Origin: a virus
Lineage: Duplodnaviria; Caudoviricetes
Virus record (IMG/VR): IMGVR_UViG_3300020045_007366
Span: 1-34,338 of that record
DNA: 34,338 bases
Strand: one strand, 5' to 3'
Shown: positions 2,789-19,598 of the stretch, piece by piece
How the letters are laid out: each line of letters opens with the position of its first letter
How positions within the stretch are numbered: the stretch's first letter is position 1
The notes under the pieces: generated by a model
Database searches by the model: none
Seen by the model: the letters and a program-made list of their open reading frames with translations, nothing else
Told to the model about the DNA's origin: nothing
Position numbers and translations under genes: made by a program

Positions 2789-3044
2789 GGAATCAGCAGA
2801 GCCAATTGGGATTGACTCGATTATTGCAAGAGTCGACAGTTATATTGCCGACACTAAGCTGGTGACTCCTGGGACGCTCGCTGAACTTAAAAGTGAGCTT
2901 GAAGATTTGAAAGAATATCTTGATGGAGAGGAAACTCAAGAGCCTAAAAGCATGGGCGGGGATAACAAGGAGAGCGGTAGCGACCCGAAAGAGCCTGCCC
3001 TTGCCATTATGATTGGAAAAATGAAACACGGAGGAGAACAATGA
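2760..3044 (+). CDS. Small acidic hypothetical protein
   Basis: AAGGAG RBS; ATGA overlap with the next gene. Confidence 0.65.
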   Translation: MKQEMNTETEESAEPIGIDSIIARVDSYIADTKLVTPGTLAELKSELEDLKEYLDGEETQEPKSMGGDNKESGSDPKEPALAIMIGKMKHGGEQ

Positions 3045-3460
3045 AACGAGTGCTATTTGGATTAGGATTTTTAGTTTTAGCCAAACTTTGTTTTGCGACG
3101 GTTATTCCTGGAGAAGGGCAAGTAAATAGAGAAGTACAGCGACCGGATCAGCATATGTCCGAAGCCGTCTATCAATCTTCGCAGACTTGTTCCGGCTCCG
3201 GATTGCAAACTGTGTTTATCAGTTCTCCAGCGGCTGTTGATTTGTATGCGATTTCCGTTACGAGCGCAGGAACTGCCGGGGCCTACATTGAAGTGTTTGA
3301 CGCTCTGCCAGCGACAGCTGCGGCAAGAAGGGTGGCATTTATTGATTCCAGAGTTACAGGGTTCTATCCGTTTAATGTGTCTTTTTCTTCATGGCTTGCT
3401 GTTTCAAATCAAGGCGAGGTTCAGCCTGCTTGCATCTCGATTTTACATAGAGTGAGGTAA
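3041..3460 (+). CDS. Signal-peptide-bearing beta-sandwich protein, putative capsid decoration (paralog of 6777-7256)
   Basis: N-terminus MKRVLFGLGFLVLAKLCFA|T; shares 'LY.I.V.S.G..GA.I.VFDA' and 'F..x.F...L' patterns with 6777-7256; GGAGGAG RBS. Confidence 0.65.
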   Translation: MKRVLFGLGFLVLAKLCFATVIPGEGQVNREVQRPDQHMSEAVYQSSQTCSGSGLQTVFISSPAAVDLYAISVTSAGTAGAYIEVFDALPATAAARRVAFIDSRVTGFYPFNVSFSSWLAVSNQGEVQPACISILHRVR

Positions 3461-3461
3461 G

Positions 3462-3761
3462 ATGCCGACATTTTCGGTTGTAGGAAGAGCGGGAACAACA
3501 AAAGTATTTACTTCGACGACAACGCCAGGAGTAGAAATCTCATTTCCTGTTCCTATCAAGTCTTTTCTTATCATGCCGATAGGCGGGGACATTACTTTTA
3601 GGTTTGCTTCTACTGATGCCGATGCCGATGCTTTTCCTGTTGCTGATGGACAGGCTTTTCAGATGGATTTGTCGTTAAGATATCCTCAATCTACAAATAT
3701 ATCTATTGTAGGTTACGCAATGGGCGCAGGAGTTCCGGTTTATGTCGCAGTTGGGTATTAA
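3462..3761 (+). CDS. Small beta-rich virion-like protein
   Basis: GAGG RBS; alternating hydrophobic beta-strand pattern; lies in the head module. Confidence 0.6.
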   Translation: MPTFSVVGRAGTTKVFTSTTTPGVEISFPVPIKSFLIMPIGGDITFRFASTDADADAFPVADGQAFQMDLSLRYPQSTNISIVGYAMGAGVPVYVAVGY

Positions 3762-3778
3762 AAAGGAGAGTGATTAAA

Positions 3779-4210
3779 ATGGAAGGAATTGAGATTGTAA
3801 AAGAGTTGGAAGATTCTATAAAGATAGCTTTGAAAGGGTTAAATACTCTCGAAAGAAGTGAATCTCAAGCAAGGAATAGGGTTGGGGAGCTTGAGGCTAA
3901 AAAGTCGCTTCTTGAGAAAGATTGTATTGCTCTGGAAGAGAAAAAGTCTAATTTAAACGCTGATTTTGAAAAGCAAAATGTGGCTAAATACCAGGATTTG
4001 GAAGATAGACTGAGAAACGCTGTTAAGCAGGAATCTAATCTAAACGAGCTAATCTCAATCAACGCTTCCAAACAGACAAAGCTTGATGGAGCCGCGTCTT
4101 TGATGAACTCTGAGAAAATTAGGTATGAGCAGTTGGCTGAAGAGTATACAACCAAACTCAAAGAAGTGAACGAAAAGAAAGCGAGATTGGATGCGGCGTT
4201 TAATGGCTGA
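3779..4210 (+). CDS. Coiled-coil hypothetical protein
   Basis: AAGGAG RBS fits ATG 3779; heptad-rich in E/K/L. Confidence 0.65.
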   Translation: MEGIEIVKELEDSIKIALKGLNTLERSESQARNRVGELEAKKSLLEKDCIALEEKKSNLNADFEKQNVAKYQDLEDRLRNAVKQESNLNELISINASKQTKLDGAASLMNSEKIRYEQLAEEYTTKLKEVNEKKARLDAAFNG

Positions 4211-4985
4211 TAATTTCGGAGTTACTGTCGGCGTATGCACTTATGCCGCTATAAAAACCCGTGCTGTCATGTCTCATTTTGCCTTAGAGAAATGTCCTAA
4301 CCCTAAAATCATGGTCAGGTATCAAGACGGTGACGCTTTAATAGGCCGATCCCGTTCCTTAATAGCCAATCGGTTCCTGAAAGATACTTCAGACGAGCTT
4401 TTGATGTTCCTTGACGAGGATGTGGTAATCTCCACCGAGGACGCAACGAAGTTAATGTGGGAAGCACACACACTTAAATTGCCTATCGTGGGAGCCGCAT
4501 ACTGCACCAAGAGCAAGGATAATCCTGGGTTAGCTATCAGGCCGTTAGCAGATACTGACAAAATTGAATTTGGCAAGAACGGGGCTATTGTCGAAATGCG
4601 TTCAATCAGTACGGGGTGCATGGTTATCCGTCGTGAGGTATTTCATGCGATGATTACCTCTGAAAAGATTAAGTATTGCAAGCACAGAGATAGGGGATAT
4701 TACCCGTTTTTTCAGGACGTTCAAAAAGAGATTGATGGGACATGGGAACATTTGAGCGAGGACTGGTTTTTTACGGAGATTGCGAGAGAACTTGGGTTTA
4801 AAATTTATTGTGACACGACAATCAAGTTAGGGCATATCGGGGCGTACGAATATACTTTTGATGATATTTTGGAAACAAGAAATGGACAAAGAAAGAAATA
4901 TGATTCAGTTACATTTAATTTAGGAAATAGGAAGGAACCAGATTTTTCCGTTTCGGACTTAACCGGAACGAGGCCGAAGGGCTAA
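4203..4985 (+). CDS. Glycosyltransferase, GT-A fold (GT2-like, phage type)
   Basis: 'RSRSLIANRFL', DxD motif 'FLDED', 'TGCMVIRREVF', 'LSEDWFF' and 'GFKIYCDTTIKLGHIG'. Likely start ATG 4203. Confidence 0.8.
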   Translation: MADNFGVTVGVCTYAAIKTRAVMSHFALEKCPNPKIMVRYQDGDALIGRSRSLIANRFLKDTSDELLMFLDEDVVISTEDATKLMWEAHTLKLPIVGAAYCTKSKDNPGLAIRPLADTDKIEFGKNGAIVEMRSISTGCMVIRREVFHAMITSEKIKYCKHRDRGYYPFFQDVQKEIDGTWEHLSEDWFFTEIARELGFKIYCDTTIKLGHIGAYEYTFDDILETRNGQRKKYDSVTFNLGNRKEPDFSVSDLTGTRPKG

Positions 4986-4995
4986 AGGAGACACA

Positions 4996-5877
4996 ATGGA
5001 ACAGGATACACTAACTGCCCCAGTTGAACAGGGTAGCCCGCCAGAAAGCGGGTCGCAGGCCACCGAGACAACCGAGCAATCGGCCTCTCAGTCGCAACCG
5101 TCAACCACCTCTCAGGTCGAGAGCGGTGTCAACAGTCCTCCAGCACCCGATACTACGAGGAGAAAACCGTCTGACTTTTACCGCGAACGTGAGAAATCAC
5201 GGCGTCTTGAACAAAACCTTCAGGAGCAAGCGAGAAAAATTCAGGAATTGGAATCTCTAATTAAGGATAGTAAGAATCCTAAATCACCGGAAGTGTCGCC
5301 TAGTAAGTTTGATAAAGACAAATTCTGGAATGATCCTGAATCTATCCTGAAAGAGTTAATCCAACAGCATCTAACGCCGTTGGAACAGCTTAAACAGGAA
5401 TTTCAGTCCATCAAACAGAAGGAAGTCGAAGCCAAACAGACTCAGGATATGCGAGAGGCGTTGGAAGTGTTATTTCCGAAAAAGAGTCCTGACAGCAAGG
5501 AAACTCTTGAGGAACGAATCAAGAATAGCGGAGAGTATGGGGATATGGTCAGAGAAATTCTGAACGATCCCGAATACGCCAACCTAAGTCCTCAAAAGGC
5601 GGCTAAGATAGCCCTTTTGGAGATTAAGGAAAGGAAACCGGTTGAAGTCAAAAGCCCTAAAGCCATAGACAAGAAGTTAATGGGCGGGCAAGCGGCTGGC
5701 AATCCTTCAGGTAACGCTAAGGCTAATTCTTCCGCAGAGTCCATGTTGGCTGAATTAAAAAAGCTGAATAATGAAATCAGAGAAAGGCCCGAACTGCGGT
5801 TCAATACTGAACTTATGCAGAGAAAGGCTAAACTCGACGAAAGTATCAGCAGACTCTTAAAAGAAGAAAGGAAATAA
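4996..5877 (+). CDS. Capsid scaffolding protein
   Basis: Disordered acidic N-terminus plus coiled coils; immediately upstream of the capsid gene; AAGGAG RBS. Confidence 0.75.
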   Translation: MEQDTLTAPVEQGSPPESGSQATETTEQSASQSQPSTTSQVESGVNSPPAPDTTRRKPSDFYREREKSRRLEQNLQEQARKIQELESLIKDSKNPKSPEVSPSKFDKDKFWNDPESILKELIQQHLTPLEQLKQEFQSIKQKEVEAKQTQDMREALEVLFPKKSPDSKETLEERIKNSGEYGDMVREILNDPEYANLSPQKAAKIALLEIKERKPVEVKSPKAIDKKLMGGQAAGNPSGNAKANSSAESMLAELKKLNNEIRERPELRFNTELMQRKAKLDESISRLLKEERK

Positions 5878-5903
5878 CATTAAGCTATTTAAGGTAAATA
5901 ACA

Positions 5904-6761
5904 ATGGCTAATGAATTCGATAATACAGCATTAAACTCCACCGTTCGTGAACTTTGGGATGAACGTCTCGAAGACGCACGTTACGCGGAAATGGTTATTG
6001 GCTCTCGTGTGGCTAACAAGTCTGAAATCGCTAAAAAGAAAGGCGATATCATTCACGTTACCATCGACCAGGCTTATACCGTTGGAACCGTGTCGGCGGC
6101 TGGAGTGGTTGCGGCTCAGAATTATACCTTGTCTACTGTTGACATTACTCTTCAGAACTGGGAACAAATCACAATCGTTGAATTGGATCGGGCGAAAGCT
6201 CAGTCCTTCTGGTTGCCTGATTCCGTGTTTCCCAAAAATGTCGGTAAAGCCTTCGGCGCAAGGTATGACAGCGTTCTAGCCGGACAGCACGCAAGCATTA
6301 CTAGCTCGGTTGGGTCAACTACCAGCCCCGCGGACTTGGACAAGACTCTTGTTCAGGAAGCGATGCTTACTCTTGCTAACAGTAATGTTCCGTTGGAAGA
6401 TTTGAACTTGTTTGTTCATCCTACTGCTTACTGGCAGGGACTGTTCAATGAAGTTCAGCTTCAGGATGCGAACAAGACTGGTTCGGAGAAATCCGCACTA
6501 ATTACTGGCAAAGTAAACATGATTGCTGGTGTGCCTATCTATCAATCGACCAACATTGCATCGACTGGAAGCCCTGCGGTTCGCAAGAACCTCCTGCTTC
6601 ACAAGTCTTGCATGGCAATCGCTTGGCAGAAAGATGCGGAAATTAAGTCGGCAGACGGTCTGGCTGGACTGGTTTTGGGAACTATTTTCAACGCCCAGAG
6701 CCTTTACGGTTATAACGTCATCCGCGCCGATCACGGCGTGGTAATCAACTCGAAAGCATAA
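5904..6761 (+). CDS. Major capsid protein (HK97 fold, P22/T7-like)
   Basis: 'ELWDERL', 'KKGDIIHV', 'LANSNVP', 'FVHPTAY', 'IAGVPIYQSTNI' and 'LYGYNVIR' pattern typical of podovirus coat proteins; follows the scaffold. Confidence 0.9.
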   Translation: MANEFDNTALNSTVRELWDERLEDARYAEMVIGSRVANKSEIAKKKGDIIHVTIDQAYTVGTVSAAGVVAAQNYTLSTVDITLQNWEQITIVELDRAKAQSFWLPDSVFPKNVGKAFGARYDSVLAGQHASITSSVGSTTSPADLDKTLVQEAMLTLANSNVPLEDLNLFVHPTAYWQGLFNEVQLQDANKTGSEKSALITGKVNMIAGVPIYQSTNIASTGSPAVRKNLLLHKSCMAIAWQKDAEIKSADGLAGLVLGTIFNAQSLYGYNVIRADHGVVINSKA

Positions 6762-6776
6762 AAAGGAGGCAGTAAG

Positions 6777-7256
6777 ATGAAAAAATTGTATGTCTTGACC
6801 GCCTTCGTTATGCTGGCTATGGCAGGAATTTCTGTGGCGGGAGAGCTTAGACAGACCCCCCATGGAGATCATCCGCAAGCTCTGGCTACGGCTGATTACG
6901 GCGGAGTGTATTACTCAACAGCATTGTTTGGCCCACTTAGTGGGACAGGCATTTCTGTGACGACTGTTTGTGCTCCTTGTACTGGAGTGTTCTACGGGTT
7001 TATGTTTAGTTCCGGCGCTGCCGGGGCTCTTGACTTCGTGGATGTGTTTGACGCAACCTCAACGGTTAATACTAAGCAGGCGGGTTCTATAATCTCCCGC
7101 ATTTATAACCAGAACGGTTCGACAAGCACGGCGGCTGGTTCGACCCAGGGTTTTACTGGGCCTCCGAAACCAATCCGTTTCAACAAAGGCTTGATGTATA
7201 AACCTAGTGTTGGAACTTATAACGTAATTACGGGCTTATTTTATTCTGGGCCTTAA
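6777..7256 (+). CDS. Signal-peptide-bearing putative capsid decoration protein
   Basis: Directly after the MCP with a strong AGGAGG RBS; MKKLYVLTAFVMLAMAGISVA|G; beta-sandwich pattern ending 'PIRFNKGL'. Confidence 0.7.
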   Translation: MKKLYVLTAFVMLAMAGISVAGELRQTPHGDHPQALATADYGGVYYSTALFGPLSGTGISVTTVCAPCTGVFYGFMFSSGAAGALDFVDVFDATSTVNTKQAGSIISRIYNQNGSTSTAAGSTQGFTGPPKPIRFNKGLMYKPSVGTYNVITGLFYSGP

Positions 7257-7265
7257 GTCATAAGA

Positions 7266-7306
7266 ATGTGTGTCTGGGGGTGGGAGAAATCCTGCCCCCA
7301 ACACAT
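7266..7306 (+). terminator. GC-rich hairpin after the capsid/decoration genes (terminator or mRNA 3' stabiliser)
   Basis: TGGGGGTGGGA-GAAA-TCCTGCCCCCA stem with G-U pairs and a GNRA loop, extended by ATGTGT/ACACAT; no clear U-tract. Confidence 0.55.
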
Positions 7307-7317
7307 CTAAGGATTTT

Positions 7318-7608
7318 ATGCAAAAATGTGACATTTGTGAGACTGAAGGACATTATAGGTTGAGAGCCATAGGCAATGGAGTCTGGTCGTGCATGGGATG
7401 CTTAAGGACTCCTCCTAGTGAGTTGTCCGTCGGAATACAAACTAAAATAAAAGTTGGTAATCTTTGGGCTACTCAAAGCCAACTAAACGAAATGGACAGA
7501 AGGGTGATTATTCCTGGGACTTTGACAAAAGACGGGAGTTACAAGATTGGGCGAAGAATGGAAAACGGACGGATTTCAGAGAATCAAGTGCCGAGATACG
7601 CATCATAA
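7318..7608 (+). CDS. Zn-ribbon hypothetical protein
   Basis: AAGGA RBS then ATG 7318; CDIC...CMGC. Confidence 0.65.
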   Translation: MQKCDICETEGHYRLRAIGNGVWSCMGCLRTPPSELSVGIQTKIKVGNLWATQSQLNEMDRRVIIPGTLTKDGSYKIGRRMENGRISENQVPRYAS

Positions 7609-7618
7609 GGAGAATAAA

Positions 7619-8002: not shown

Positions 8003-8003
8003 A

Positions 8004-8720
8004 ATGACACTTGTAAATATCAGGAATAAAGTTAGGGACTACATTTCTCAAGAGGATACGTCTAACACAGACTTTTCCGATACGGAACTCAATAATTATA
8101 TAAATGAAGGTATCCGATATTTGGGTAAGTTGGTTAAAAAGCCTATCAAAAGAATCACGATTCAGGCGGTTCTTGATACGGCGACGTATTCTCTTGCAAG
8201 TGTAGCCCCTGATTTTATTCTTCCCACTACGGCTTATTTTGGGGATACCACTATCAACGGGGATGTACAAAAGCTGGAACTTATCCCCGAGGAATCTTTG
8301 GCTGAAATCAACCCTGCGTGGTTAGATGCAACTACAGGCAGTCAAGGAAGGCCAAGATACCTTGTGATGATTAACAGGACAACGGTTCTTGTTCATCCGC
8401 GACCCAATTCAGATCAGTCGGCCTCAGGAAAACTAATCCATTTGACGTTTGTCTACGAACCCACAGAAATAACAAGTGATTCCGCTGAGCCGGATTTGCC
8501 AATTTCATATCACGATTTGATTCCAAAATATGCCTATTCCGAGTGTCTTATCAGTAAACTCAAGGAAGATGCTAAGGGATACTCTATCAGGGGACTTATG
8601 GAGAAGGAAGCTAAAAAGATTGAGCCTCTAATCATTAAAGAGGCTAATTCGTTTGGATTTACTTGGGGACATTCAATTGATGTCAATGATGATTCAGGAT
8701 GGGGAGTTCGCGTTTCTTGA
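8004..8720 (+). CDS. Head-tail adaptor / tail tubular protein A-like
   Basis: 'MTL..IR..VR...FSD.ELN.YINEG', 'G.PRY', 'VHPRP' and 'PDLP..YHDLI..YA' are typical of podovirus adaptors. Confidence 0.8.
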   Translation: MTLVNIRNKVRDYISQEDTSNTDFSDTELNNYINEGIRYLGKLVKKPIKRITIQAVLDTATYSLASVAPDFILPTTAYFGDTTINGDVQKLELIPEESLAEINPAWLDATTGSQGRPRYLVMINRTTVLVHPRPNSDQSASGKLIHLTFVYEPTEITSDSAEPDLPISYHDLIPKYAYSECLISKLKEDAKGYSIRGLMEKEAKKIEPLIIKEANSFGFTWGHSIDVNDDSGWGVRVS

Positions 8721-11125
8721 AGAAACTTATCATGGCATTGTTGATGATGCCTTCTTTATGTTATGCCTTACCACCTGGATCTAAAGTAGAACCTATTGGC
8801 GTTCCTAGTGGTGGATTGGATACGAACAATCCGTCATTTAAATTAAGTTCAAAGTTTAGTCCATATATGAGAAACGTTTACATAGATAATGGAAAAATTG
8901 AGGGGATTAAAGGGTTTACAGTATTGGGAAGTACATTTTCCCTTCAAAAGGTTACAGGAATATTCCCTTTTTATAGGGAAAGCGGATTGACTACTTTTTT
9001 AGTTACGGATTCCAGTGTTACTATGGAAACGACTGATTTCAATACATGGGTTATGATTAGTTCCAGGTCAAATACAGGGTCAAACATGAACTGGATGCAA
9101 GTTAGGAATAAGATGTGGGGGTTTAATGGGGTAGACTTCGTTTTGACTTGGGATGGATCTGTTTTGCAGAAATTGAACGGAGCATTAGGTATGCCGAACG
9201 TGCCTAAATTCAAGTACGGAGCATACTGGCAAGAACGAGTCTGGGGATTCAATAATCCTTCAGGAGCATCGGATTTGGATTTTAGCGCAGTCGTAACTAC
9301 AGACGCTGTCATTATCAATCCCGATGATTATAGGGCATGGCCTGTAACTAATAACCTTAAAATTGGTCAAGGAGACGGAGAGATTGGGACGGCTTTATAC
9401 GTTAGAGATGGGCAGCTTAGATGTGGGAAGGAAAGGTCGCAATACACAATTTACGGCACGAATGTATCAAACTATTTTCCTCGCAAGAATTCGTCCAACT
9501 CCATTGGGATTGTGTCTAACGATAGCGTGGTAAACATGGACGATCATACATATTATTTAAGCCAAAACGGGATTTATCAGGATGAACAGAGGATTTCTGA
9601 TTTAATTCAGGATGATGTTGAGCAAATCTATAAAGGTAAGGTTCAAGTGATTGGCAATGTGTGGGAAAGCGCAGGAGATTTCATTGCCAAGGGAATGCAA
9701 TTTGGGACTACGGTTACTCCTACCGGATTATTGTCTATGACTACGGTTCAAATATCTACAACTGCGTATGGTGGAGGAAATACGTTTGGATATTTTGATG
9801 ATTCCGTAGACAATTTATCTAACGGGGCCATGAATGCCTCTACAACATTTTACGGCCCCCTCTATGTGAATTTCAATACAAGGGTAAGTTCTGAGGCCCT
9901 AGTCTATTTAAGCAGTATTACGGTATGGATAAATGGATCTGGGGGTCTTAGAACTACAATTTTAAATAGATATACCGGACAATACTATGTAAATGATTTA
10001 CCGAGAAATGATGGAAATGTTCCTAGCTACGGGAATCCGCCTGAAGGTCAATTTTATACTATTCTTTTATCCAGTCAAGCTCCAATATTTGAGGGATGGC
10101 AAATTCATGGGGGCAGTTTTGCGGTTAAATGGGAATTGAGAGATATAGGAAGTTTTCCTACCGATGCCATCACAATTGCATGTTGTGCGAATACGCCGTC
10201 TATTAGCGTAGACCCCTCCGGAAGAACTACACGCGACCCGATTTGGGGTCTTGCTCCTGCGACTACCGTTCAATATGTCTCAGAAGTCACAACTGCCAAT
10301 TCCGTTACGGCTTGGGGTAATTTTGATTCTTTAAACTTTCCAAATCAAGGACAGATAGACTTTTTTATAAAAACAGGCACAGGAGTGCAGGTAGTCTCTC
10401 AATCAACCAATGCCTGGCAACCCATTACGCCAGGAACGATTATTAACGCTGTCACAGCCAATAGGTTTTTTCAATGGGCGACTACAATGTCTGTGGTTCA
10501 GTTTTCTTCAGGCGTAGCCGCAATAGATAATGTAGAAATAGACCATATTGAAGGTGCGGGATCGCTTAACAGGGCTTTTGCAACATCATGGAAAAATAGG
10601 TATTGGCTTGCCACGTCTACCGATGGCGGGGATGTATTTAGCCTTATTTATGTTAAATCCATTATAACAAACGATAACCCACATGCTTGGATGCCATTGG
10701 AAGGCATGAATGTCCGATGTTTTGCCAAGGATGGAAATATTCTTTATGCCGGATCTTCAAGTTCAGGATCGGTTTTAAGACTTGATTATGGCACTAATTA
10801 TGATGGAACTGCAATTCCTTATGTTTATGATACGCCGGACATGACTTTAGGGGCAAACTATACAAGTAAAAGCATACTAAACTACTTCTTAGACGCAGAT
10901 AAGGATACTGCCCTAACCATGAATGTTGGGACATCCATAGATCAGGGCTCATTTAACACGAGAACAATATCTTTGTCCGGTTCCGGAAGGAGTTTGACTA
11001 CTATCAAAGGTGTCACAAATCCTTGTAAGACATTGAGGGTAAAATTGTCTCATAACCAGCTGGATAAGAAGTTTAACATCTATGATTTTTCTGTTCTCTA
11101 TCAGCCTAGCGAGGTATGGGAATGA
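8717..11125 (+). CDS. Tail hub/nozzle (P22 gp10 / T7 gp12-like) with N-terminal signal peptide
   Basis: Follows the adaptor; 'GGLDT...MRNV' N-terminus, beta-propeller-like blades and 'YDTPD..LG...KSI' C-terminus. TTGA overlap with GGGGAG RBS gives MKKLIMALLMMPSLCYA|L. Confidence 0.75.
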   Translation: MKKLIMALLMMPSLCYALPPGSKVEPIGVPSGGLDTNNPSFKLSSKFSPYMRNVYIDNGKIEGIKGFTVLGSTFSLQKVTGIFPFYRESGLTTFLVTDSSVTMETTDFNTWVMISSRSNTGSNMNWMQVRNKMWGFNGVDFVLTWDGSVLQKLNGALGMPNVPKFKYGAYWQERVWGFNNPSGASDLDFSAVVTTDAVIINPDDYRAWPVTNNLKIGQGDGEIGTALYVRDGQLRCGKERSQYTIYGTNVSNYFPRKNSSNSIGIVSNDSVVNMDDHTYYLSQNGIYQDEQRISDLIQDDVEQIYKGKVQVIGNVWESAGDFIAKGMQFGTTVTPTGLLSMTTVQISTTAYGGGNTFGYFDDSVDNLSNGAMNASTTFYGPLYVNFNTRVSSEALVYLSSITVWINGSGGLRTTILNRYTGQYYVNDLPRNDGNVPSYGNPPEGQFYTILLSSQAPIFEGWQIHGGSFAVKWELRDIGSFPTDAITIACCANTPSISVDPSGRTTRDPIWGLAPATTVQYVSEVTTANSVTAWGNFDSLNFPNQGQIDFFIKTGTGVQVVSQSTNAWQPITPGTIINAVTANRFFQWATTMSVVQFSSGVAAIDNVEIDHIEGAGSLNRAFATSWKNRYWLATSTDGGDVFSLIYVKSIITNDNPHAWMPLEGMNVRCFAKDGNILYAGSSSSGSVLRLDYGTNYDGTAIPYVYDTPDMTLGANYTSKSILNYFLDADKDTALTMNVGTSIDQGSFNTRTISLSGSGRSLTTIKGVTNPCKTLRVKLSHNQLDKKFNIYDFSVLYQPSEVWE

Positions 11126-11394
11126 GATGGTTATTTTTAAGTTTAGCTCTATGTGCCTTTACTCCAATTTTTCAAAAACATGATTCAACAGAAAAGATTG
11201 ATGAGGAGTTTGCTAATTTGGAACAAGACGCTCAGTCTCAAGGGTTTAGGATTTTCAACGCAACACCAACGCTTAAAGATTTAAAAGATGGGCAGATAGT
11301 GATTATGAGTACGAATGGTTACACTAGCTTAATGTGGCGTTCAAATATAGAAATATTCTCAGTAAAAGGTTCCTGTGTTACAATTTTTAGGTAA
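11122..11394 (+). CDS. Small tail-associated protein with hydrophobic, signal-like N-terminus
   Basis: ATGA overlap, GAGG RBS; MRWLFLSLALCA|F. Confidence 0.6.
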   Translation: MRWLFLSLALCAFTPIFQKHDSTEKIDEEFANLEQDAQSQGFRIFNATPTLKDLKDGQIVIMSTNGYTSLMWRSNIEIFSVKGSCVTIFR

Positions 11395-11410
11395 TAAGAG
11401 GAGATAATAT

Positions 11411-12601
11411 ATGGCATGGATAAAATTGCAAGACGGAACATATCAAGACCCAACTGTTGGAAGAATAATTGATCCTAGGAATTATTCTGAGGAACAGTTG
11501 ATTAAAATGGGGATACCGATAGATAGTAAACCCTCCCAATCATCTCAACAGACATCTCAGTCTCAATCATCTCCATGGCAATCTGCTCTAAGAACTTACG
11601 AACAGCAAGGAAATTTAACAGATAAGCAAAAACTTGAAATTGCCGCTCTGGGCGGTTCCATGTCGGAAGATTATCGGCCTATATTCCAGCAAGGATTTGA
11701 AAGGGCTGGACAGCCTGAAAATAGCCCTGTTCCTGCATCTTACGTCATATCCGGAACGCAACAGCTTGCGGAATCGTACATTGACCGTTACTTTGAAAAA
11801 ACAGGGAAACTCCCAACCGAAGTCCAGGTTAGAGATTTTGTAGCCACAAATTTAACTCCTTCTTTTGCTAAAGAGATTGTTACAAACTCTACAAATCCAT
11901 CGAAAATAAAGGTTAACTTGGTTGATCCTTATATCCAGAATGAAAAGTTTCAGGAAGAGTTAAATAAGCCTCCGGTTACGCCTACGCCTACGCAGTCTAA
12001 TGCTGGCATGACCAGTCAGCAGATTAACGAACTTTACGCTCCTCTTGAGCAGTATGCTACGAATCAGGTTAGGCAACAGTTTGCGCCTCTACGGGCTAGG
12101 GCTGTAGACGAGGAGGCTGCTTTAGGCCGTTTACGTTCAGGTGTAGCCCGCGACCCTGGTTCAATGATAGGACAAGTGGACGCGAATCAAGGGAATGCTC
12201 TATCAAGCGTTATCGGGAACATTCTAGGCCAGAAGGCATCTGGAACACTTGATTTAGGCAAATTTAATGCTGGACTTGATTTGTCCAAACAGCAGTTAGC
12301 ACAATCCCAAAACCAGTTCATGCAGAATCTTGGGTTTAATCAGAATCAGTTTAATCAAACTATTGGATTACAAAAACAACAGTATGCCGATGCACAGGAC
12401 TTACAAAGACAACAGTTAAATTTAGCCAAGTATTTAGGGCAATTGCAAGGCAAGGGAAAATCAAATAATGGACTTTCTGGTGGGTTAGGTGGGGCGGCTG
12501 GTGGGGCGGCTACTGGAACAGCTATTTTGCCTGGATGGGGAACAGCTATCGGGGGATTAGCTGGAGGACTTATGGGATATTTTGGATCAAGAGAGGACTA
12601 A
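11411..12601 (+). CDS. Internal virion / DNA ejection protein
   Basis: Q/N-rich repeats (QNQFMQNLGFNQNQFNQ) and a C-terminal glycine-zipper 'GGAAGGAATGTAILPGWGTAIGGLAGG'; located after the tail hub. Confidence 0.7.
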   Translation: MAWIKLQDGTYQDPTVGRIIDPRNYSEEQLIKMGIPIDSKPSQSSQQTSQSQSSPWQSALRTYEQQGNLTDKQKLEIAALGGSMSEDYRPIFQQGFERAGQPENSPVPASYVISGTQQLAESYIDRYFEKTGKLPTEVQVRDFVATNLTPSFAKEIVTNSTNPSKIKVNLVDPYIQNEKFQEELNKPPVTPTPTQSNAGMTSQQINELYAPLEQYATNQVRQQFAPLRARAVDEEAALGRLRSGVARDPGSMIGQVDANQGNALSSVIGNILGQKASGTLDLGKFNAGLDLSKQQLAQSQNQFMQNLGFNQNQFNQTIGLQKQQYADAQDLQRQQLNLAKYLGQLQGKGKSNNGLSGGLGGAAGGAATGTAILPGWGTAIGGLAGGLMGYFGSRED

Positions 12602-12602
12602 C

Positions 12603-13856
12603 ATGGCTGATATGAATGATTTGGTTCGACAAATAGCTTACTATCAATCTGGCGGCAAAGATGCTGGAAATAGCAATTTAGATCAATTCAATAAAGCCTA
12701 TGGAACAATTAGTGTTATGGGTAAAGATTTCATGGCTATCCGTAAAGCTCAGGAAGATATTATGACTTCAGCTTTAGCCAGGAAGAAAACGCAGATGGAG
12801 ATTGATACTGGACGTAGGTCAACTACTCCGATTGAAATTACCGCAGGAAGAACTCCTATCCCTGGAATGACAGCAGGCATACAGGCTCCTGGGCAGGTAG
12901 CAGGCATGGAAGGCGAGACTATCGTTCAGGCTCCAACTAAACCTAATTTACCTTCAGGATTAGAGGAATATGGAAAGTTTACGCCAGAGGAAATTCCAAA
13001 ATTAGCAGCAGGTCAAAAGGCTAATGCAGGGCCAGAAATGGTTCCCGTTTCCATGCTTCAGGGGGAACCGTTAGCAAGGGCATTGGCATTAGGAATTTCC
13101 CCAGACAGCATGATTGACGTAAAGAAATTCAATGCTTTTAATCGAGTTGATCCGGCGGCTCCGGTTGGAACAATTAAGCCGGAGGATGCGCTTAAGCTTG
13201 GGAGTATCCCAGGAAACACAAAAGTTATAGATCCTCGTGGGACTTCAATAGGAGATTTGTCTCCAGGGCAACAAACAGCTGCGTTTAAGCTGTCAGATGA
13301 CTTCAGAACTGATTCAACAGACTTTGTTAAAAAAAGAAACTCATATAACAATATTGTTTCTTCCGCTAGGGAAGCCGAAAGTTCTACTGGTGGTTCTGGT
13401 GACTTGGCTTTAATCTATGCCTTTACCAAGCTGCAAGACCCAACAATGGTTACAGAGCAGGAAATTCAAAATGCTGTAAATACGGGAAGTTTTGGCGAGC
13501 AAGTAAAGGCGGCTATGGGCAAGGTTTTGGAAGGTAAAAAGTTGACGCCTGAAATTCGGGAAGGGTTCGTAAAAACAGGAGAAAGAATTTATAGGGAAGC
13601 TCTTAATCAACAGAAAGATTTAACAGAGCAATATAAAATTAGGGGCGATTCGCTTGGCATTGATTCTAAATTGTTTTTGATTGATTATGAGGCTATGGAC
13701 ACAAGGAAACCTATAAATCAAGGACAAACAACTCAGCCTAAAATTGAAAAAAAATCAACTCCTAAAATTCCAGCAGTTGGTGAAAAAAGAAAAGGATATA
13801 TTTTCACAGGCGGTGATCCTGCAAATCAAAATAATTGGATAAAGGAAAAGAAATGA
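12603..13856 (+). CDS. Internal virion / DNA ejection protein
   Basis: GAGGA RBS then ATG 12603; 'GDLALIYAFTKLQDP' motif recalled from podovirus injection proteins; synteny. Confidence 0.65.
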   Translation: MADMNDLVRQIAYYQSGGKDAGNSNLDQFNKAYGTISVMGKDFMAIRKAQEDIMTSALARKKTQMEIDTGRRSTTPIEITAGRTPIPGMTAGIQAPGQVAGMEGETIVQAPTKPNLPSGLEEYGKFTPEEIPKLAAGQKANAGPEMVPVSMLQGEPLARALALGISPDSMIDVKKFNAFNRVDPAAPVGTIKPEDALKLGSIPGNTKVIDPRGTSIGDLSPGQQTAAFKLSDDFRTDSTDFVKKRNSYNNIVSSAREAESSTGGSGDLALIYAFTKLQDPTMVTEQEIQNAVNTGSFGEQVKAAMGKVLEGKKLTPEIREGFVKTGERIYREALNQQKDLTEQYKIRGDSLGIDSKLFLIDYEAMDTRKPINQGQTTQPKIEKKSTPKIPAVGEKRKGYIFTGGDPANQNNWIKEKK

Positions 13857-14881
13857 GTTTTCCTTGGGAGGATTTTAAATCAAAAGAATCTAATCCGTGG
13901 GATGACTTTTCTAAAGAGGAAACTAAAACTTCTACAGAAAAAAAGTCAGTTACCGGAGGTTTATTCGGAACTTTCATTGGCGAGAATAGTGAAACTTTAA
14001 GAAAGGCTAGAATCCCCCAGCAGGTTGTAAGCGGAGTTTCTGAGGGAATGATGGATGCCATTGAGCCGGAAACCCAGAGTGTTGCATTAAATGCTCTTTT
14101 AAGAACTCCTCAAACCATAGCAAGTTTTGGGGCAGATAGGGTTTCCGATTTTGTATCTCCTGAAAATGTCGTAACTTATGGAGCATTAAAAGGCGCACAG
14201 TCCGCTTCTCCTGCTATTAAGGCTGTCGGTAGGGCTATTGGAAGTGGAGCGGAGAAACTATCTGGATTAGGATATAAAACTCCTGGAATTTTGGCAGAGG
14301 TAACAAATAATCCAGGACTACCGTTTAAGCCAGGGGTTGAGGCGGCTAACGAAACCTATGCTCAAATGGTTGATCCTACGCAAATTAGGGAGTCCATGAA
14401 AGTAGTTTTAGGTAAAAAAGAGTTCGTTGAGCAGGCCATACAATTTGCTAAAGACGGAACATTGACTGCCGATGAAGCACTTATAGCTAGACAGGGACTA
14501 GATCAAATCAAAAATACTGTTCCTCGTCCAGTTTTCTTTAATGTTAGGGACATTTTGGATAATATTGCAAAAACTAAGTTTGCTGGTGCTGATGAGGCCA
14601 GGACTATCGCATCTAAGGCAGAAGCACTAAGAAATGTTTTTCCACTAAATAAGGGCGGAACACCGTCAAGATTAGGTCAGTTAGTTCAGGGAGCATCTGT
14701 TGTAGGCGCAAAGTTCAATCCTTATGCTTTAGCCACGGCCCCTCTTATATCGCCAAGGGGGCAAGCTCTTGTGGCTTCTGGAATTGGTATAGCAAGAAAG
14801 GTTGCTGCTCCTATAATGAAAAATCCTTCCCTATCGGCTTATATAGCCAGCATCATGGCCAACAAAGGTAAAAAGAAATGA
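13853..14881 (+). CDS. Internal virion / DNA ejection protein
   Basis: ATGA overlap; 'PWEDF..NPWDDF' N-terminus; A/G-rich helical protein; synteny. Confidence 0.65.
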   Translation: MSFPWEDFKSKESNPWDDFSKEETKTSTEKKSVTGGLFGTFIGENSETLRKARIPQQVVSGVSEGMMDAIEPETQSVALNALLRTPQTIASFGADRVSDFVSPENVVTYGALKGAQSASPAIKAVGRAIGSGAEKLSGLGYKTPGILAEVTNNPGLPFKPGVEAANETYAQMVDPTQIRESMKVVLGKKEFVEQAIQFAKDGTLTADEALIARQGLDQIKNTVPRPVFFNVRDILDNIAKTKFAGADEARTIASKAEALRNVFPLNKGGTPSRLGQLVQGASVVGAKFNPYALATAPLISPRGQALVASGIGIARKVAAPIMKNPSLSAYIASIMANKGKKK

Positions 14882-16407
14882 AAAAATGGCTCCTAGCTCT
14901 ACTATTCATACCTAGCATTTCTTACGCAGATGGCGGTGGTGGGATTAATTTAACCCTTAATCCTAAGGCTCTTTTAAAATCTACAAACACATGGCAAGCA
15001 CCTCAAGTATTCCTATCCTCTACAACTTTTTCCAGTTCAACACTTAAAATAGGGGTTATGGTTTATTTTATGCCATCTTCAGCCCCGCCTACTTCAGATT
15101 CAGTTCTTCATTATAATTGGATTAGTTCAAAGGTTTATTTTGGTGGTGATGGCGGGGGTTCAGGAGGAGGGGGAGGCGGAAGTGGAGGATGGATTTATGA
15201 CGGTATAACCAATAATCCTTTCTCTACATTCACTGTGACAGGAGCAACTTACGATTTCAGCAATGGAATTGCAACAATAACCGTAACTGGAGGCGGTGGG
15301 TCAGACAATCTCGGCAGCCACGTTTCCACGAGAACGCTTATTTTGCCTTTTGGGATTTCAGCTTCAAGCGGGGTCTTTTCCAGTTCAATAAATGTCATGG
15401 GGGTTATCGTATCCTCATCTTCGGCTCTTTTGGGTGGAGCCACGATTCAGGGGAATTTAATGGTGTCTCAATTCGTTGGGATTGGAACGGGCACGCCTGT
15501 ATATGATCTCCATATTTTAAGGCCCTCAGGTTTTGTTTATAGTGCTTTGCAGGCCCTCGATGCTTCCGGTGCGGCGTTTAGCCTTGGGTTCAATGATAGC
15601 GGAAAGGATTATCTTTTTGGAATTTATGGATCAGGAGCGGCCGGGACGTATTTCGGTGGGGTTCCAAACGCGGATGCGGCTTTGTTTGCGGCAGAGGGAG
15701 CAAGCAGTTTGGGTTTTGGGACATCGGCTAATTCTCCGATAGTTTTGGGGACTACGAACATTGAACGAATGAGAATATATGGCAATGGGGCAATCGTTTC
15801 CAAGGGTAGCATGACTATCACAGGCGCTGGAGGAGCTGAAGTCACTTACGGGGCGACTGTCGGCACGTTAACCGTGACATCGGGAATAACATTCACTCAA
15901 AGTTACAAGGCCGCCGTCTGTCAATCCGACAATGCTTCTCTTGGGTTTTCAGCGTTCACATCCAGCCAACCAAGCGCGGTATGCGCTCAAAGCTCAACGA
16001 CTGTTTTTGGGTATGCTCAATTTCTTGAAGTTTCGACCAAGGCCGTTCAGGATCATTTTTCTTTGCCTACGGATTGGGTGGGTGCGATGGATGCGAACAT
16101 CGTTTGGATGTCTACTGAAACATCTGGAAACGTGGTATGGCAAATAAAGACAGGGTGCGTAGCCGATGCTGAAATGTCAACAGTCACATGGAATGCCGCC
16201 AGCACGGTTACGGATGCTACTAAATCCATTGCGGGCAGGTTCAATCAAGCGTCTATCTCTGGAATCACTACAACGGGATGTGCTGGCGGCGAGGAACTTT
16301 TCTTTGATTTTAGGCGAGAGGGCGGCCATGCTTCGGACTCGATGGTCTCCATAGCGAATTTGGTGACGTTACAGCTTGTCATACGCAGGACTTTGGGACT
16401 GCAATAG
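14878..16407 (+). CDS. Tail fibre/spike-like protein with signal peptide
   Basis: MKKWLLALLFIPSISYA|D; Gly linkers, S/T-rich segments, fibre-type 'VGIGTGTP..DLHI' and 'GTTNIERMRI' motifs; C-terminal beta-sandwich with 4 Cys. Confidence 0.7.
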   Translation: MKKWLLALLFIPSISYADGGGGINLTLNPKALLKSTNTWQAPQVFLSSTTFSSSTLKIGVMVYFMPSSAPPTSDSVLHYNWISSKVYFGGDGGGSGGGGGGSGGWIYDGITNNPFSTFTVTGATYDFSNGIATITVTGGGGSDNLGSHVSTRTLILPFGISASSGVFSSSINVMGVIVSSSSALLGGATIQGNLMVSQFVGIGTGTPVYDLHILRPSGFVYSALQALDASGAAFSLGFNDSGKDYLFGIYGSGAAGTYFGGVPNADAALFAAEGASSLGFGTSANSPIVLGTTNIERMRIYGNGAIVSKGSMTITGAGGAEVTYGATVGTLTVTSGITFTQSYKAAVCQSDNASLGFSAFTSSQPSAVCAQSSTTVFGYAQFLEVSTKAVQDHFSLPTDWVGAMDANIVWMSTETSGNVVWQIKTGCVADAEMSTVTWNAASTVTDATKSIAGRFNQASISGITTTGCAGGEELFFDFRREGGHASDSMVSIANLVTLQLVIRRTLGLQ

Positions 16408-16415
16408 GAGGGGTC

Positions 16416-16724
16416 ATGGCAGATCAAGTTTTTGTTCAAGTTCGGTATAAGATGGTTCACGAAGGTCACGAGTTTAACGACTGCCTATATTTCACCGAGC
16501 CGGAATACGCCAGCACAACGCAAGGCAAGATTGAGGACATGAAACAAGCAAGGTTTGATAAATGGGTGGCTGTTATCGTAAATCCTCCTCCTGCCGTTGA
16601 GCCCACAAAAGAACAGCTTGAAGAAATGGAAGCCATGCTCTTGAAACAGCTTGAAGAAGTCCAGGCGCAGATCGTGGCAAAGACTCCGCCTCCTGCGCCG
16701 GAACCTGAACCGGAGCCACTCTAA
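16416..16724 (+). CDS. Small protein, possible fibre assembly chaperone
   Basis: AGGAGG RBS; coiled coil and a (PE)n tail; lies between the two fibre genes. Confidence 0.55.
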   Translation: MADQVFVQVRYKMVHEGHEFNDCLYFTEPEYASTTQGKIEDMKQARFDKWVAVIVNPPPAVEPTKEQLEEMEAMLLKQLEEVQAQIVAKTPPPAPEPEPEPL

Positions 16725-16762
16725 ATGGCGGTAAAGGCAGAGTTTAATATGCTGATGCGACA

Positions 16763-16771
16763 TGGTATAAT
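16763..16771 (+). promoter_or_regulatory. Extended -10 promoter for a leaderless HNH gene
   Basis: TGgTATAAT ending 6 nt before ATG 16778; no RBS. Confidence 0.6.
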
Positions 16772-16777
16772 ACGTCT

Positions 16778-17140
16778 ATGGAAAATAGAGACAATCATGG
16801 TAGATTTACTAAGGGGCATAAGACTAATATTGGGAATAAATTTAGATTGGGTAAAACTGCTTGGAACAAAGATAAAAAGATACAGACCAATACTGGAAGA
16901 ACTCATTTCAAAAAAGGTTTCACTCCTTGGAATAAAGGATTACTCTTTGGTGAACCCACATATTGGCAATTACATAAATGGGTTCCTAAGAATTTGGGGA
17001 AAGCTAAAAAGTGTGTATTTTGTAAAACTGAAACAGCCAAGAAGTATGAGTGGGCAAATAAAAGTCACGAATATAAAAGAGAATTATCAGATTGGCTGGA
17101 ACTCTGCACTAAATGCCATAGAGCATACGACAAGAAATAA
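16778..17140 (+). mobile_element. Free-standing NUMOD3/HNH-like homing endonuclease gene
   Basis: 'FKKGFTPWNKG'-type repeats, CxxC, 'YEWANKS...DW..LC..CH..YD'; AT-rich relative to the flanking fibre genes; has its own promoter. Confidence 0.7.
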
Positions 17141-17163
17141 TTCCTTCAGTAACCTAAAACCAT

Positions 17164-19323
17164 ATGGCTGTTAAGTATGCCCTTACTGGATTATGGACCG
17201 ACGATACTTCGTGGTCTACCACGTCCGGCGGGGCGGCAGATACGGTAGAGCCCACGGCGGCTGACGATGTTATTTTTGATTCTAACTCGGGGAATATAAC
17301 CATAACCGCAGCTGCTGTTTGCAGGTCTTTGGACATGACCTCTGGCACAGGAAACTACGCTGGGGTTTTGAACCATGATGCTGGATTTACATTAAGCATT
17401 GGGGACGGCACGGCTGGGGCGGGGAATGTGGCTCTTAAACTAGTGGCAAGCACCTACACCATAGACAATGCCCTCACCTCCGCCATTTCTTTCGTCTCAA
17501 CTTCAACTACCCAGCAAGGAATTACTTGGGCTGGCAACACTCACGGCAACCTAACATTTAATGGTGTCGCAGGAAGTTGGATTTTTAATGATGCTTCAAC
17601 TGGGGTTGGGACAACAACCACGCTAACCAACGGGACTTTAAATACAAACGGGCAGACCTGTTCGTGGGGAACTTTTACTTCTTCCAACAACAACACTAGG
17701 GTTTTGACTATGGGAGCAAGCAATATAACAATATCAAATGGAAATGGCGTGGTATGGCAAATTGACGGCAGTAATATAACGATAAATGCCAACACATCAG
17801 CAATAACACTAACGGGAGCAAACACTACCTTTGCGGGTAGCGGGACAGCGAGCGCAAAAACATATTATTCCGTGAGTTTAACTGGTTCGGGCGCGGCTGT
17901 TTTGGCAGGAACAAATAATGATACTTTTACAAATTTTACCAGGACAGGAACGGCTGTAAAAACTGACAGTTTAAGCGTTGCGGGTAACCGCACAATTACA
18001 GGCACTCTTCGTCTTGACGGGGCATCTGTTACAAATCGCCTTTTAGTCGCATCCAACACTCTCGGTACAGCCCGCACCATCACCGCTGCCACCATGTCCG
18101 CCTCAACAGATAATGTGGATTTCAGAGACATCACGGGTGCAGGTGCGGCCAGCTGGGACTTGTCGGCGAAGTCAACAGGGGATGCTGGCGGGAATACGAA
18201 CATCACTTTCACCACAGCCCAGACGCAATATTGGGTAGGAGGAACAGGGTCATGGTCAACTGCCGCAGAATGGGGCACGACTTCTGGCGGGTCTGGAGGG
18301 AGGACACCGCTACCTCAAGACGATACCGTGTTTGATGCTAATTCTTTTAGTGCTCCTAACCAGGACTCATTCATGGATATGCCAAGGTGCGGAAAGACTT
18401 TGACAGCTACAGCCGCCGCTATTGGAGCCAATACACCACGCCTTTACAATTCTAACGCCATTGAGATTTATGGCGGGTACGATTTAAGCGGAGTCAATAA
18501 TTCATCTATCGGGAACGGGTTTAACTTTACCTTGGCTGGGCGAGGCAGTTTCACTTTGACTCAGGGCAGTTACACCGGAATGGCCGGTTCTGCGACCACT
18601 ATTCTAGCCGCGCCTGGGGGCACTTACACGCTTTTGGATGCGATGGCATTTAACAGCACTGTTCGGGGTTTTCAGATATCGCACGGGACATTTGATGCTG
18701 ACGTTTACAATGTCACAGTCGGGATTTTGAACAATAACGTCACGACGACAAAAGTCATTTCAATGGGTTCAGGAACGTGGACGATCACCGGAAGCGGGAC
18801 ATCCATGTGGCTATTGAACGCGACCGGAACGACGCTCAACGCAGAAACGTCCACAATTCTATCCACCGCAACCGCATCTAAAACCTTCACTGGCGGCGGC
18901 CTCACTTACCACAACCTCACTTTCTCCGGGACAGGCACAGCTACAATCACGATTGCGGGATCAAACACATTTACCGGCAAATTCAAAGACATCGGCACAG
19001 CCGCTCACACTATTTCGTTCACGTCGAACACAACGCAGACATTCACGGCTCCGCCAAACACGCCTGGGAGTTCATTTTCCGTTATAGGTTCAATTGGAAA
19101 TGTGATTACATTAGACAAGTCCAGCATCATCAATGCGACTCTCTCGGACGCTTCTGGAATAAATTGTTGCGATTACCTCACCATCAGTGGGGTCACGGCG
19201 ACTGGAGGAGCATCCTGGTATGCGGGGATACACTCTACCGGAGGAACTGATATCGGGTGGCTTGATGCGTCGTGTCCGGGATTTGGGCATCACAATAACC
19301 CCGTGGCGTTCGGCGGGTTTTAA
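17164..19323 (+). CDS. Large T/G/S-rich beta-helix tail fibre / adhesin
   Basis: 719 aa with an internal duplication (WSTTSGG..P...DDVIFDSNS / WGTTSGG..P..DDTVFDANS); no signal peptide. Confidence 0.7.
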   Translation: MAVKYALTGLWTDDTSWSTTSGGAADTVEPTAADDVIFDSNSGNITITAAAVCRSLDMTSGTGNYAGVLNHDAGFTLSIGDGTAGAGNVALKLVASTYTIDNALTSAISFVSTSTTQQGITWAGNTHGNLTFNGVAGSWIFNDASTGVGTTTTLTNGTLNTNGQTCSWGTFTSSNNNTRVLTMGASNITISNGNGVVWQIDGSNITINANTSAITLTGANTTFAGSGTASAKTYYSVSLTGSGAAVLAGTNNDTFTNFTRTGTAVKTDSLSVAGNRTITGTLRLDGASVTNRLLVASNTLGTARTITAATMSASTDNVDFRDITGAGAASWDLSAKSTGDAGGNTNITFTTAQTQYWVGGTGSWSTAAEWGTTSGGSGGRTPLPQDDTVFDANSFSAPNQDSFMDMPRCGKTLTATAAAIGANTPRLYNSNAIEIYGGYDLSGVNNSSIGNGFNFTLAGRGSFTLTQGSYTGMAGSATTILAAPGGTYTLLDAMAFNSTVRGFQISHGTFDADVYNVTVGILNNNVTTTKVISMGSGTWTITGSGTSMWLLNATGTTLNAETSTILSTATASKTFTGGGLTYHNLTFSGTGTATITIAGSNTFTGKFKDIGTAAHTISFTSNTTQTFTAPPNTPGSSFSVIGSIGNVITLDKSSIINATLSDASGINCCDYLTISGVTATGGASWYAGIHSTGGTDIGWLDASCPGFGHHNNPVAFGGF

Positions 19324-19334
19324 GGAGAATTGAA

Positions 19335-19598
19335 ATGAAAAGATATCTATTCATGGCGTCAATTGTTGGGATAACTAGCATCATGGCTTATGCCGGGACG
19401 TTGTCCAAGGATCCCAATGGCAACATCGTGGAAACTTATAGCGAAGAAGAATATCAAGTTGGGCTTGATCAAAGACGAAAAGCCGTTGAAAACGCTCAAT
19501 ACCGGGTTGATAAATTGACTCTTGAACTTGCTCAGGCCGAAGCCAGATTGGTTCTTGTTCAAGCTGAGTTGCAGGATTGGGAAGCAGCGAAACAATGA
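19335..19598 (+). CDS. Signal-peptide-bearing small coiled-coil protein
   Basis: AAGGAG RBS; MKRYLFMASIVGITSIMAYA|G. Confidence 0.65.
   Translation: MKRYLFMASIVGITSIMAYAGTLSKDPNGNIVETYSEEEYQVGLDQRRKAVENAQYRVDKLTLELAQAEARLVLVQAELQDWEAAKQ

Follow-up and report, generated by a model that had tools for sequence, protein, structure and literature searches.

Predicted Sec leaders on the tail nozzle and putative needle of a tailed phage suggest virion assembly in two compartments

How could a tailed phage that fills its heads in the cytoplasm make use of virion proteins that begin with signals for export? The question is raised by IMG/VR virus record IMGVR_UViG_3300020045_007366 (Duplodnaviria; Caudoviricetes), of which we analysed positions 1 to 34,338; this whole stretch of 34,338 nucleotides is hereafter called the window. 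An earlier note, made from the letters of the window alone, had reported that six proteins of the late operon, encoded between 3041 and 19598, start with Sec-type leaders. It had proposed that outer parts of the virion are exported and join DNA-filled heads when the inner membrane is disrupted, or during an export step. The accepted view is that tailed phages complete their particles in the cytoplasm and insert the tail plug immediately after DNA packaging. Our analysis indicates that in this uncultured short-tailed phage and its relatives the parts that seal in the DNA, namely the tail nozzle (8717–11125) and a predicted plug (11122–11394), are likely made outside the cytoplasm, the compartment in which the head is filled. 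We consider it rather probable that the periplasm is where nozzle, needle, and fibres mature, and that they are attached to DNA-filled heads at the time of lysis.

Predicted leaders on six late proteins

Leaders were identified with a custom rule on the n-, h-, and c-regions, which differs from SignalP and is uncalibrated on known secreted proteins. The rule passes seven of the 29 late-region proteins of the window: the six named by the earlier note (3041, 6777, 8717, 11122, 14878, and 19335, each designated by the first position of its gene) and the product of the lipoprotein-like lysis gene 20932. All six show a basic n-region, a hydrophobic h-region, and small residues at -3 and -1. No pass is obtained for the portal, scaffold, capsid, or adaptor protein or for any of the three ejection-like proteins, as had been noted, nor for the fibre-like protein 17164, which had been singled out as an exception and is truly leaderless. 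Unlike this phage, SU10 (0 of 17 proteins) and P22 (0 of 12) show no leader in any of the 29 late proteins used as controls, in line with the earlier statement that the hub and decoration proteins of phages such as P22 and T7 lack them. Occasional false passes occur among relatives (the L054 adaptor and the L015 glycosyltransferase).

The earlier note had allowed that the true starts might lie downstream of the leaders, and a scan of start codons does not explain the leaders in this way. The 8717 gene begins with a TTG that overlaps the adaptor stop codon and is the sole in-frame start within the first 45 codons to have a ribosome-site-like motif; no start is found from the end of the leader to codon 34. 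The 14878 gene has no alternative start within its first 45 codons. In 11122 one alternative start, the TTG of codon 33, has a ribosome site; its use would delete half of a conserved helix. Among the nozzle loci of seven relatives, four have no start between the leader and the conserved core, and one has such a start with a ribosome site.

Several of the leader-bearing proteins had been described as having multiple cysteines. This holds for 8717, 14878, 3041, and 6777, with five, four, two, and two cysteines after the leader, but not for 11122 (one) or 19335 (none); the leaderless 17164 has six. Judged by their sequences, the six N-termini are likely leaders of the Sec and signal peptidase I type, from which export and cleavage are predicted.

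A tail nozzle with an added leader

Fold comparison with Foldseek and VIA confirms that 8717–11125 encodes a hub, or nozzle, of the gp10 type, as had been suggested. The 8717 model has a mean predicted local distance difference test score (pLDDT) of 86.6, and its top matches in both comparisons are podovirus nozzles (Foldseek E 7e-17). It contains a platform domain formed from both termini and an interrupted beta-propeller, the combination that characterises nozzles. The closest structural match is the hub gp59 of Pseudomonas phage Pa223 (PDB 9nwi; the needle is gp58), for which VIA gives a Z of 32.0 and a root-mean-square deviation of 2.5 over 443 aligned residues, with model residues 21–802 on chain residues 2–513. 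Corresponding values are Z 29.3 for SU10 (model 23–801 on 2–1005) and Z 27.4 for P22 gp10 (model 23–796 on 2–472). Over the best chains as a whole, Z is 26–32 and the deviation 2.5–3.1, with 413–444 residues aligned within model residues 21–802. When the nozzle profile was searched against PDB sequences, nothing matched. In addition, the gene occupies the slot between the adaptor gene and the needle and ejection genes, as in P22 and SU10. On the strength of the model, 8717 is a tail nozzle of the P22/SU10/Pa223 type.

The alignments begin with model residue 21–24 placed on residue 1–3 of the Pa223, SU10, VP1, P22, and Sf6 chains. Because the fold match starts where the solved nozzles start, the 17-residue leader of 8717 (predicted cut after residue 17) is an add-on. 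The solved Pa223 hub is modelled from residue 2 and is leaderless, whereas 8717 has both the leader and a large inserted domain at approximately residues 340–615. Compared with P22 gp10, SU10 gp17, and Pa223 gp59, it alone carries a leader before the fold.

Conservation of the leaders among relatives

Homologous phages keep the leaders on nozzle, 11122-like, 6777-like, and fibre proteins and not on portal, scaffold, or capsid proteins. The division between leaderless inner proteins and leader-bearing outer proteins that the earlier note had observed is thus systematic across the window and its relatives, with 17164 excepted. Among 58 close nozzle homologues, 39 pass the rule at the called start and 42 when an alternative start is used. 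The remaining 16 comprise four that are truncated and 12 whose start falls within the leader or immediately behind it; for three of these 12, a longer member of the same cluster has a hydrophobic leader. Leader sequences are not conserved in the nozzle family; the mature part is. Where the 5' DNA is intact, 15 of 17 nozzle frames pass (some being duplicates); in the remaining two a leader is visible but none of the common start codons precedes it.

A profile search found 3205 nozzle relatives, and 141 new representatives were taken from the best 150 of these; 66 (plus two) of 85 near representatives and 33 (plus two) of 56 far ones pass. All 68 homologues in the 6777 family pass, as do 32 (plus three) of 47 in the 11122 family. 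In gene maps of 11 and a further 12 loci, portal, scaffold, and capsid proteins lack leaders, and one adaptor shows a pass that looks false.

A predicted needle that switches with the nozzle

The gene at 11122–11394 overlaps the nozzle stop codon in the window and in relatives, which is the slot of P22 gene 26 and SU10 gp18. Its product, with a leader of 12 residues, is modelled as a helix (residues 23–39) and a small beta knob. A three-copy prediction scored 0.54, against 0.01 for the best control, with agreement between runs on at least 87% of contacts and pLDDT of at least 74; in a calibration set made up of two-copy cases, 20 of 30 solved pairs and one of 23 single chains attained the mark used for this score. 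Foldseek returned nothing at E 0.001 and PHROG no match, and weaker matches by fold are phage fibre knobs. Its position, its shape, and the joint switch described below are the grounds on which we name it, and 11122 is likely a trimeric tail needle or plug, the homotrimer being a prediction from modelling. The earlier note had correctly listed 11122 among the leader-bearing proteins and had missed this role. At 78 residues when mature, the candidate is much shorter than the Pa223 needle, which has 208.

Eight far relatives start leaderless and form one clade. Their profile fetched 16 viral loci (IMG/VR loci L040–L055, uncultured), of which three ending inside the nozzle were dropped and 13 kept, two of them identical. 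All 13 encode a leaderless nozzle and an overlapping, leaderless 11122 homologue of 77–82 residues (HHalign 90.8%, E 1.2e-6). This homologue has D-K-T at the column of the near-invariant S-S-G-T of the leader-bearing family and lacks the terminal cysteine. Gene order in the sister clade is the same, and leaders are kept on the 3041-slot, 6777-like, and fibre proteins (36 other proteins in eight phages). The clade differs in that nozzle and needle homologue are leaderless, so that only appendages would be exported. Loci L057 and L068, in contrast, have leaders on both the nozzle and the needle gene. Since leader state switches in the two proteins together, nozzle and needle share a compartment, whichever it is. 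At a further locus, L066 (10118–12760), the needle homologue is leaderless and the nozzle has no visible leader, and many head-side genes have leaders; this is possibly a second case of the switch.

Signs of an extracytoplasmic stage

Runs of Ser and Thr in these proteins were first seen by eye; eight patterns were then tested, followed by an unbiased scan of all gapped 4-mers. Over 17 low-redundancy leader-bearing proteins, SSxT ranked first (29 against 7.6) and STxT fifth (23 against 7.8). The combined motif S-[S/T]-x-T occurs 13 times in the leader-bearing proteins of the window, where 3.4 are expected, and four times in the leaderless proteins, where 5.5 are expected. Nine of the occurrences fall in 14878 (1.5 expected), and the leaderless 17164, although rich in Ser and Thr, shows no excess (3 against 3.6). 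The same division appears over ten genomes (83 against 27.7 in leader-bearing and 14 against 13.9 in leaderless proteins), and leader-bearing proteins of the sister clade have 165 against 53.2. No significant excess was found in SU10 and P22 proteins. Known bacterial glycosylation sequons include N-x-S/T, D/E-x-N-x-S/T, and D-S/T-hydrophobic, and none of these is enriched relative to shuffles (ratios of 0.95, 0.47, and 0.82, respectively). By its sequence, S-[S/T]-x-T is a candidate O-glycosylation site. Secreted proteins of Elusimicrobiota may be rich in such Ser/Thr motifs.

Cysteines also tend to be gained in pairs. At residues 340–520, in the nozzle insertion, exactly two cysteines are present in 44 of 59 nozzles, none in seven, one in six, and three in two, and the pairs 126/135 (7 of 7) and 667/681 (6 of 6) always co-occur. 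The 3041 family has two cysteines in seven of eight members; the corresponding slot of the sister clade, which it matches at 97% in HHalign, has four in seven of eight. In the 6777 family the number is even in 57 of 68. Together, the paired cysteines and the leader-linked motif favour an extracytoplasmic stage.

Proposed assembly in two compartments and its alternatives

In the assembly route that we prefer, portal, scaffold, capsid, adaptor, and ejection proteins would build and fill the head in the cytoplasm, and the host Sec machinery would export the nozzle, the needle, the main fibre, and probably 3041 and 6777. Signal peptidase would remove the leaders and leave the nozzle with an N-terminus within a few residues of those of solved nozzles. 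Disulfides would form, and a host periplasmic system would probably O-glycosylate S-[S/T]-x-T sites. Nozzle and needle would pre-assemble outside the inner membrane and would therefore change compartment together in evolution. After holin action the two pools would mix inside the outer membrane, and the tail would close.

The nozzle fold, the kept leaders, the systematic split, the paired cysteines, and the motif partly support the earlier proposal that outer parts are exported and join heads at membrane disruption, with export itself and the place of joining standing as predictions. The other option that had been offered, joining during an export step, is disfavoured by the lysis cassettes of relatives, which carry NlpC/P60 hydrolase or DUF5675 genes beside holin-like and lipoprotein-like genes. 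These cassettes appear to favour exit by lysis from a host with two membranes. The earlier reading had the hub and the split right, but missed the leaderless sister clade and the problem of how DNA is retained in a head that waits for its tail.

This problem is seen in P22, which needs its plug on before lysis and whose heads are reported to lose DNA even before lysis when the needle is missing (PMC3741392). Plugged channels are likewise described in Pa223, where the adaptor is followed by the hub and then by a trimeric needle that plugs the hub lumen (bioRxiv 10.1101/2025.06.11.659172), and in SU10, also by a needle (PMC9509320). Because unplugged P22 heads lose DNA, a temporary gate at the portal or adaptor would be required in a filled head. 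One candidate is the acidic C-terminal tail of near-clade adaptors, which end in an aromatic-Trp-Gly motif plus this tail and are up to ~15 residues longer than those of the leaderless-nozzle clade.

Several observations weigh against assembly in two compartments. The loss of DNA from P22 heads is the first, and no gate that keeps DNA in unplugged heads was found; the acidic adaptor tail is confounded with clade and is absent in L056, whose nozzle has a leader. Export, cleavage, and virion membership in this phage are read from genes, and the leader calls come from the custom rule instead of SignalP. By fold, 11122 matches no solved needle, its best hit being a collagen trimerisation domain (Z 5.3), and it has a single cysteine. 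Nozzle and needle may have switched together just once in evolution, and in the tree the near, far, and leaderless clades meet at the root on long branches that leave gain versus loss of the leader undecided. As for the motif, leaderless nozzles retain a smaller excess (38 against 22.1; 19 against 13.1), near representatives also have an excess of T-[S/T]-x-T (206 against 119.6), and the counts pool homologues and are hence non-independent. The cysteine pair of the window nozzle is adjacent (489/490), and Cys668, present in 29 of 59 nozzles, is often partnerless. Finally, the fibre 17164 has no leader. We hold with more reserve, at somewhat under even chances, the fuller statement that a large uncultured lineage of tailed phages splits assembly between gated cytoplasmic heads and a periplasmic nozzle-needle module, disulfide-bonded and glycosylated by the host at an undescribed sequon, S-[S/T]-x-T, that snaps on at lysis, with a boundary that moves by whole modules.

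The alternative that survives best, though we judge it unlikely, is that export is real and that the inner membrane, on its outer side, is the assembly site of nozzle and needle (or, if the host is unusual, an internal membrane compartment), where filled heads dock and pass locally before general lysis. Heads would then never be unplugged for long, which would remove the DNA-retention problem posed by the P22 needle mutants, and the leader, motif, and cysteine data fit such docking equally well. However, the late region yielded no recognisable protein for assembly or secretion across a membrane, the lysis cassettes of relatives are ordinary ones, and there is no known route for a head of such size through an intact membrane.

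A less probable explanation, and one to which we give little credence, is that the leaders serve as membrane anchors or are skipped through use of a second start, with the tail parts kept inside and all assembly cytoplasmic as in P22 and T7. This would agree with every studied tailed phage; the sister clade makes the same nozzle and needle leaderless, and the leader of 11122 is unusually short and is followed by the alternative TTG described above. Against this, a basic N-terminus followed by a hydrophobic core and small-x-Ala is established as predicting an N-in, C-out orientation, most of the relatives' nozzle loci scanned lack a start between leader and core, and both the motif excess and the paired cysteines track the leader.

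It is more improbable still that the leader-bearing proteins are as a group exported accessories outside the infectious particle, such as adhesins, decoys, or blockers of superinfection. In favour, accessory genes with exported products are common in the late operons of phages, 3041, 6777, and 19335 have no identified virion fold, 19335 adjoins the lysis genes, and a second nozzle is formally possible in a contig estimated to be 88% complete. Against it, 8717 is the only recognised nozzle gene of the contig, is translationally coupled between adaptor and ejection-like genes, and has the leaderless sister-clade nozzle as its orthologue. The idea stays plausible for 19335 and partly plausible for 3041 and 6777.

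Comparison with known systems

Compartment aside, the proposed two-compartment phage resembles P22 (gp4/gp10/gp26) and SU10 (gp11/gp17/gp18) in nozzle fold and in the gene order nozzle, needle, ejection proteins, and it shares the SU10-type adaptor (PF24175). This locus adds a leader on the putative needle, a joint change of leader state in nozzle and needle, and the S-[S/T]-x-T motif; its parts are otherwise P22/SU10-like.

Cellulophaga phage phi18:3 (KC821620) provides a partial parallel. Its proteins gp085, gp086, and gp087 are annotated as structural from tandem mass spectrometry and pass the leader rule, which indicates that leader-bearing proteins can reach a tailed virion. The other structural proteins so annotated that we checked have no convincing leader, gp120 passing the rule through a glycine-rich start. 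Thus the core tail of phi18:3 appears to be cytoplasmic and its leader-bearing proteins appendage-like, whereas in the phage studied here the sealing core appears to be involved. The phi18:3 record makes no remark on export, and by tblastn the phage is unrelated to the present clade. In the phi18:3 loci (L037 10892–14902 and L036 1905–3584), the D-S/T motif of Bacteroidota is depleted in the three leader-bearing proteins (3 against 9.6).

Filamentous phages place virion proteins with signal peptides, such as M13 pIII and pVIII, in the membrane and assemble there; they have no capsid shell, portal, or terminase and are extruded without lysis. The present phage, unlike them, has a major head protein, a portal, a terminase, and lysis genes. 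A literature search limited to listings and the beginnings of abstracts found no description of exported tail parts in a tailed phage, and passages of PMC12494034 contain no precedent.

If proven, two-compartment assembly would be a route new for tailed phages. With an exported plug, these phages would need some new means of keeping DNA inside a head that has no tail, as well as a late joining step, and they would gain disulfides and sugars made by the host on the very surface presented to the next host. The sister clade offers a natural control and phi18:3 a cultured test case for leader-bearing virion proteins. In addition, the S-[S/T]-x-T motif may lead to an undescribed glycosylation system in the host, and to the identity of that host.

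Genome setting and other late proteins

The contig is linear, with 34,338 bases and an estimated completeness of 88%. Its left 21.7 kb form the late operon on the + strand, in the order terminase end, portal, scaffold, major head protein, adaptor, 8717, three ejection-like genes, two fibre-like genes, and lysis-like genes. Early genes, for YqaJ, ERF, YopX, and a methyltransferase, make up the right part. All late genes given here are on the + strand. The leaderless portal (519–2417) is assigned by position and by a tblastn match to an annotated phage portal (22% identity, E 4e-4), and relatives are 41–71% identical. The scaffold-like protein (4996–5877) is recognised by position, composition, and conservation in relatives, the major capsid protein (5904–6761) by phrog_283 (E 2.4e-13), and the SU10-type head-tail adaptor (8004–8720) by PF24175 (E 4.3e-14); all three are leaderless.

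A leaderless protein with Ser-Asn-x-Phe repeats is encoded between adaptor and nozzle in relatives (L003 9678–9941, L020 9248–9511, L022 1068–1328, L005 9807–10001, and others), in 20 locus rows with many duplicates. We rejected it as a universal gate, as it is absent from the window and a similar gene is present in L042, whose nozzle is leaderless.

Three leaderless proteins (11411–14881) are putative ejection proteins, given a position like that of P22 genes 7/20/16 and a glycine-zipper end that Pfam matches weakly (E 0.02). The first of them has 270–470 residues in the near clade; the leaderless-nozzle clade (L040–L054) has in its place two shorter genes of ~130–215 residues each.

Two small leader-bearing proteins are candidate decoration or accessory parts of the virion. 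The first, encoded at 3041–3460, is a small beta protein with two cysteines and a candidate head or collar accessory; relatives have a leader-bearing protein in the same slot. The second (6777–7256) is beta-sandwich-like and, from its position directly 3' of the capsid gene, a candidate decoration protein; its look-alikes in the Atlas are unnamed viral clusters at 0.92–0.93, with structure template-modelling scores below 0.5. Neither has a PHROG match. Paralogy of the two was rejected as weak (BLAST E 1e-4, HHalign 7%).

The leader-bearing fibre-like protein (14878–16407) shares its first 50 residues with otherwise different long leader-bearing proteins of relatives, and searches of Pfam, PHROG, and the PDB gave no identification. 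A leaderless gene of 90–100 residues often directly precedes the leader-bearing fibre gene (L040 15196–15468; L043 17493–17771). A gene of this kind is found in the window at 3462–3761, and it directly precedes the 14878-like fibre gene in three relatives; the protein is a possible cytoplasmic dock for fibres.

The second fibre-like protein, 17164–19323, has a 31% match in Limnohabitans phage DC31 and was probably acquired recently, as a fibre module of the ordinary cytoplasmic type. No homologue of 17164, 16416, 19335, or the lysis genes was found in any fetched locus. A free-standing gene at 16778–17140, between 16416 and 17164, is presumably HNH/NUMOD3-like and has no Pfam match at 0.01. 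The frames 16725 and 17164, which flank it, both begin MAVK. An intron was rejected as an explanation for the leaderless 17164, as Rfam found nothing and neither start has a leader. The coiled-coil protein 19335–19598, directly upstream of the lysis-like genes, bears a leader and has no cysteine and no S-[S/T]-x-T motif; we do not count it as a virion part, and it is a candidate fibre chaperone or lysis accessory.

A conserved, leaderless GT2-like glycosyltransferase is encoded at 4203–4985. The window protein has no Pfam match of its own, and its L001 homologue matches PF00535 at 7e-5. In the near clade the gene belongs to the head module, and sister-clade phages have it next to the fibre genes; its product could modify the capsid or feed the putative glycosylation.

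Scans of GTDB genome contigs with the nozzle and portal profiles gave no relative or prophage that would point to a host; five distant proviruses matched weakly and bore no host label. Sequence-cluster entries named no organism, and Atlas hits were confined to unnamed viral clusters. Nozzle and adaptor had no match among 50,697 phage records, and no cultured relative was found there. On the - strand, a DNA methyltransferase (29239–29929) lies in two frames split near 29600, by a frameshift or an assembly error. Also on the - strand, in 22430–23076, the early-side gene 22846 and the lipoprotein-like gene 23076 start with hydrophobic leaders as well.

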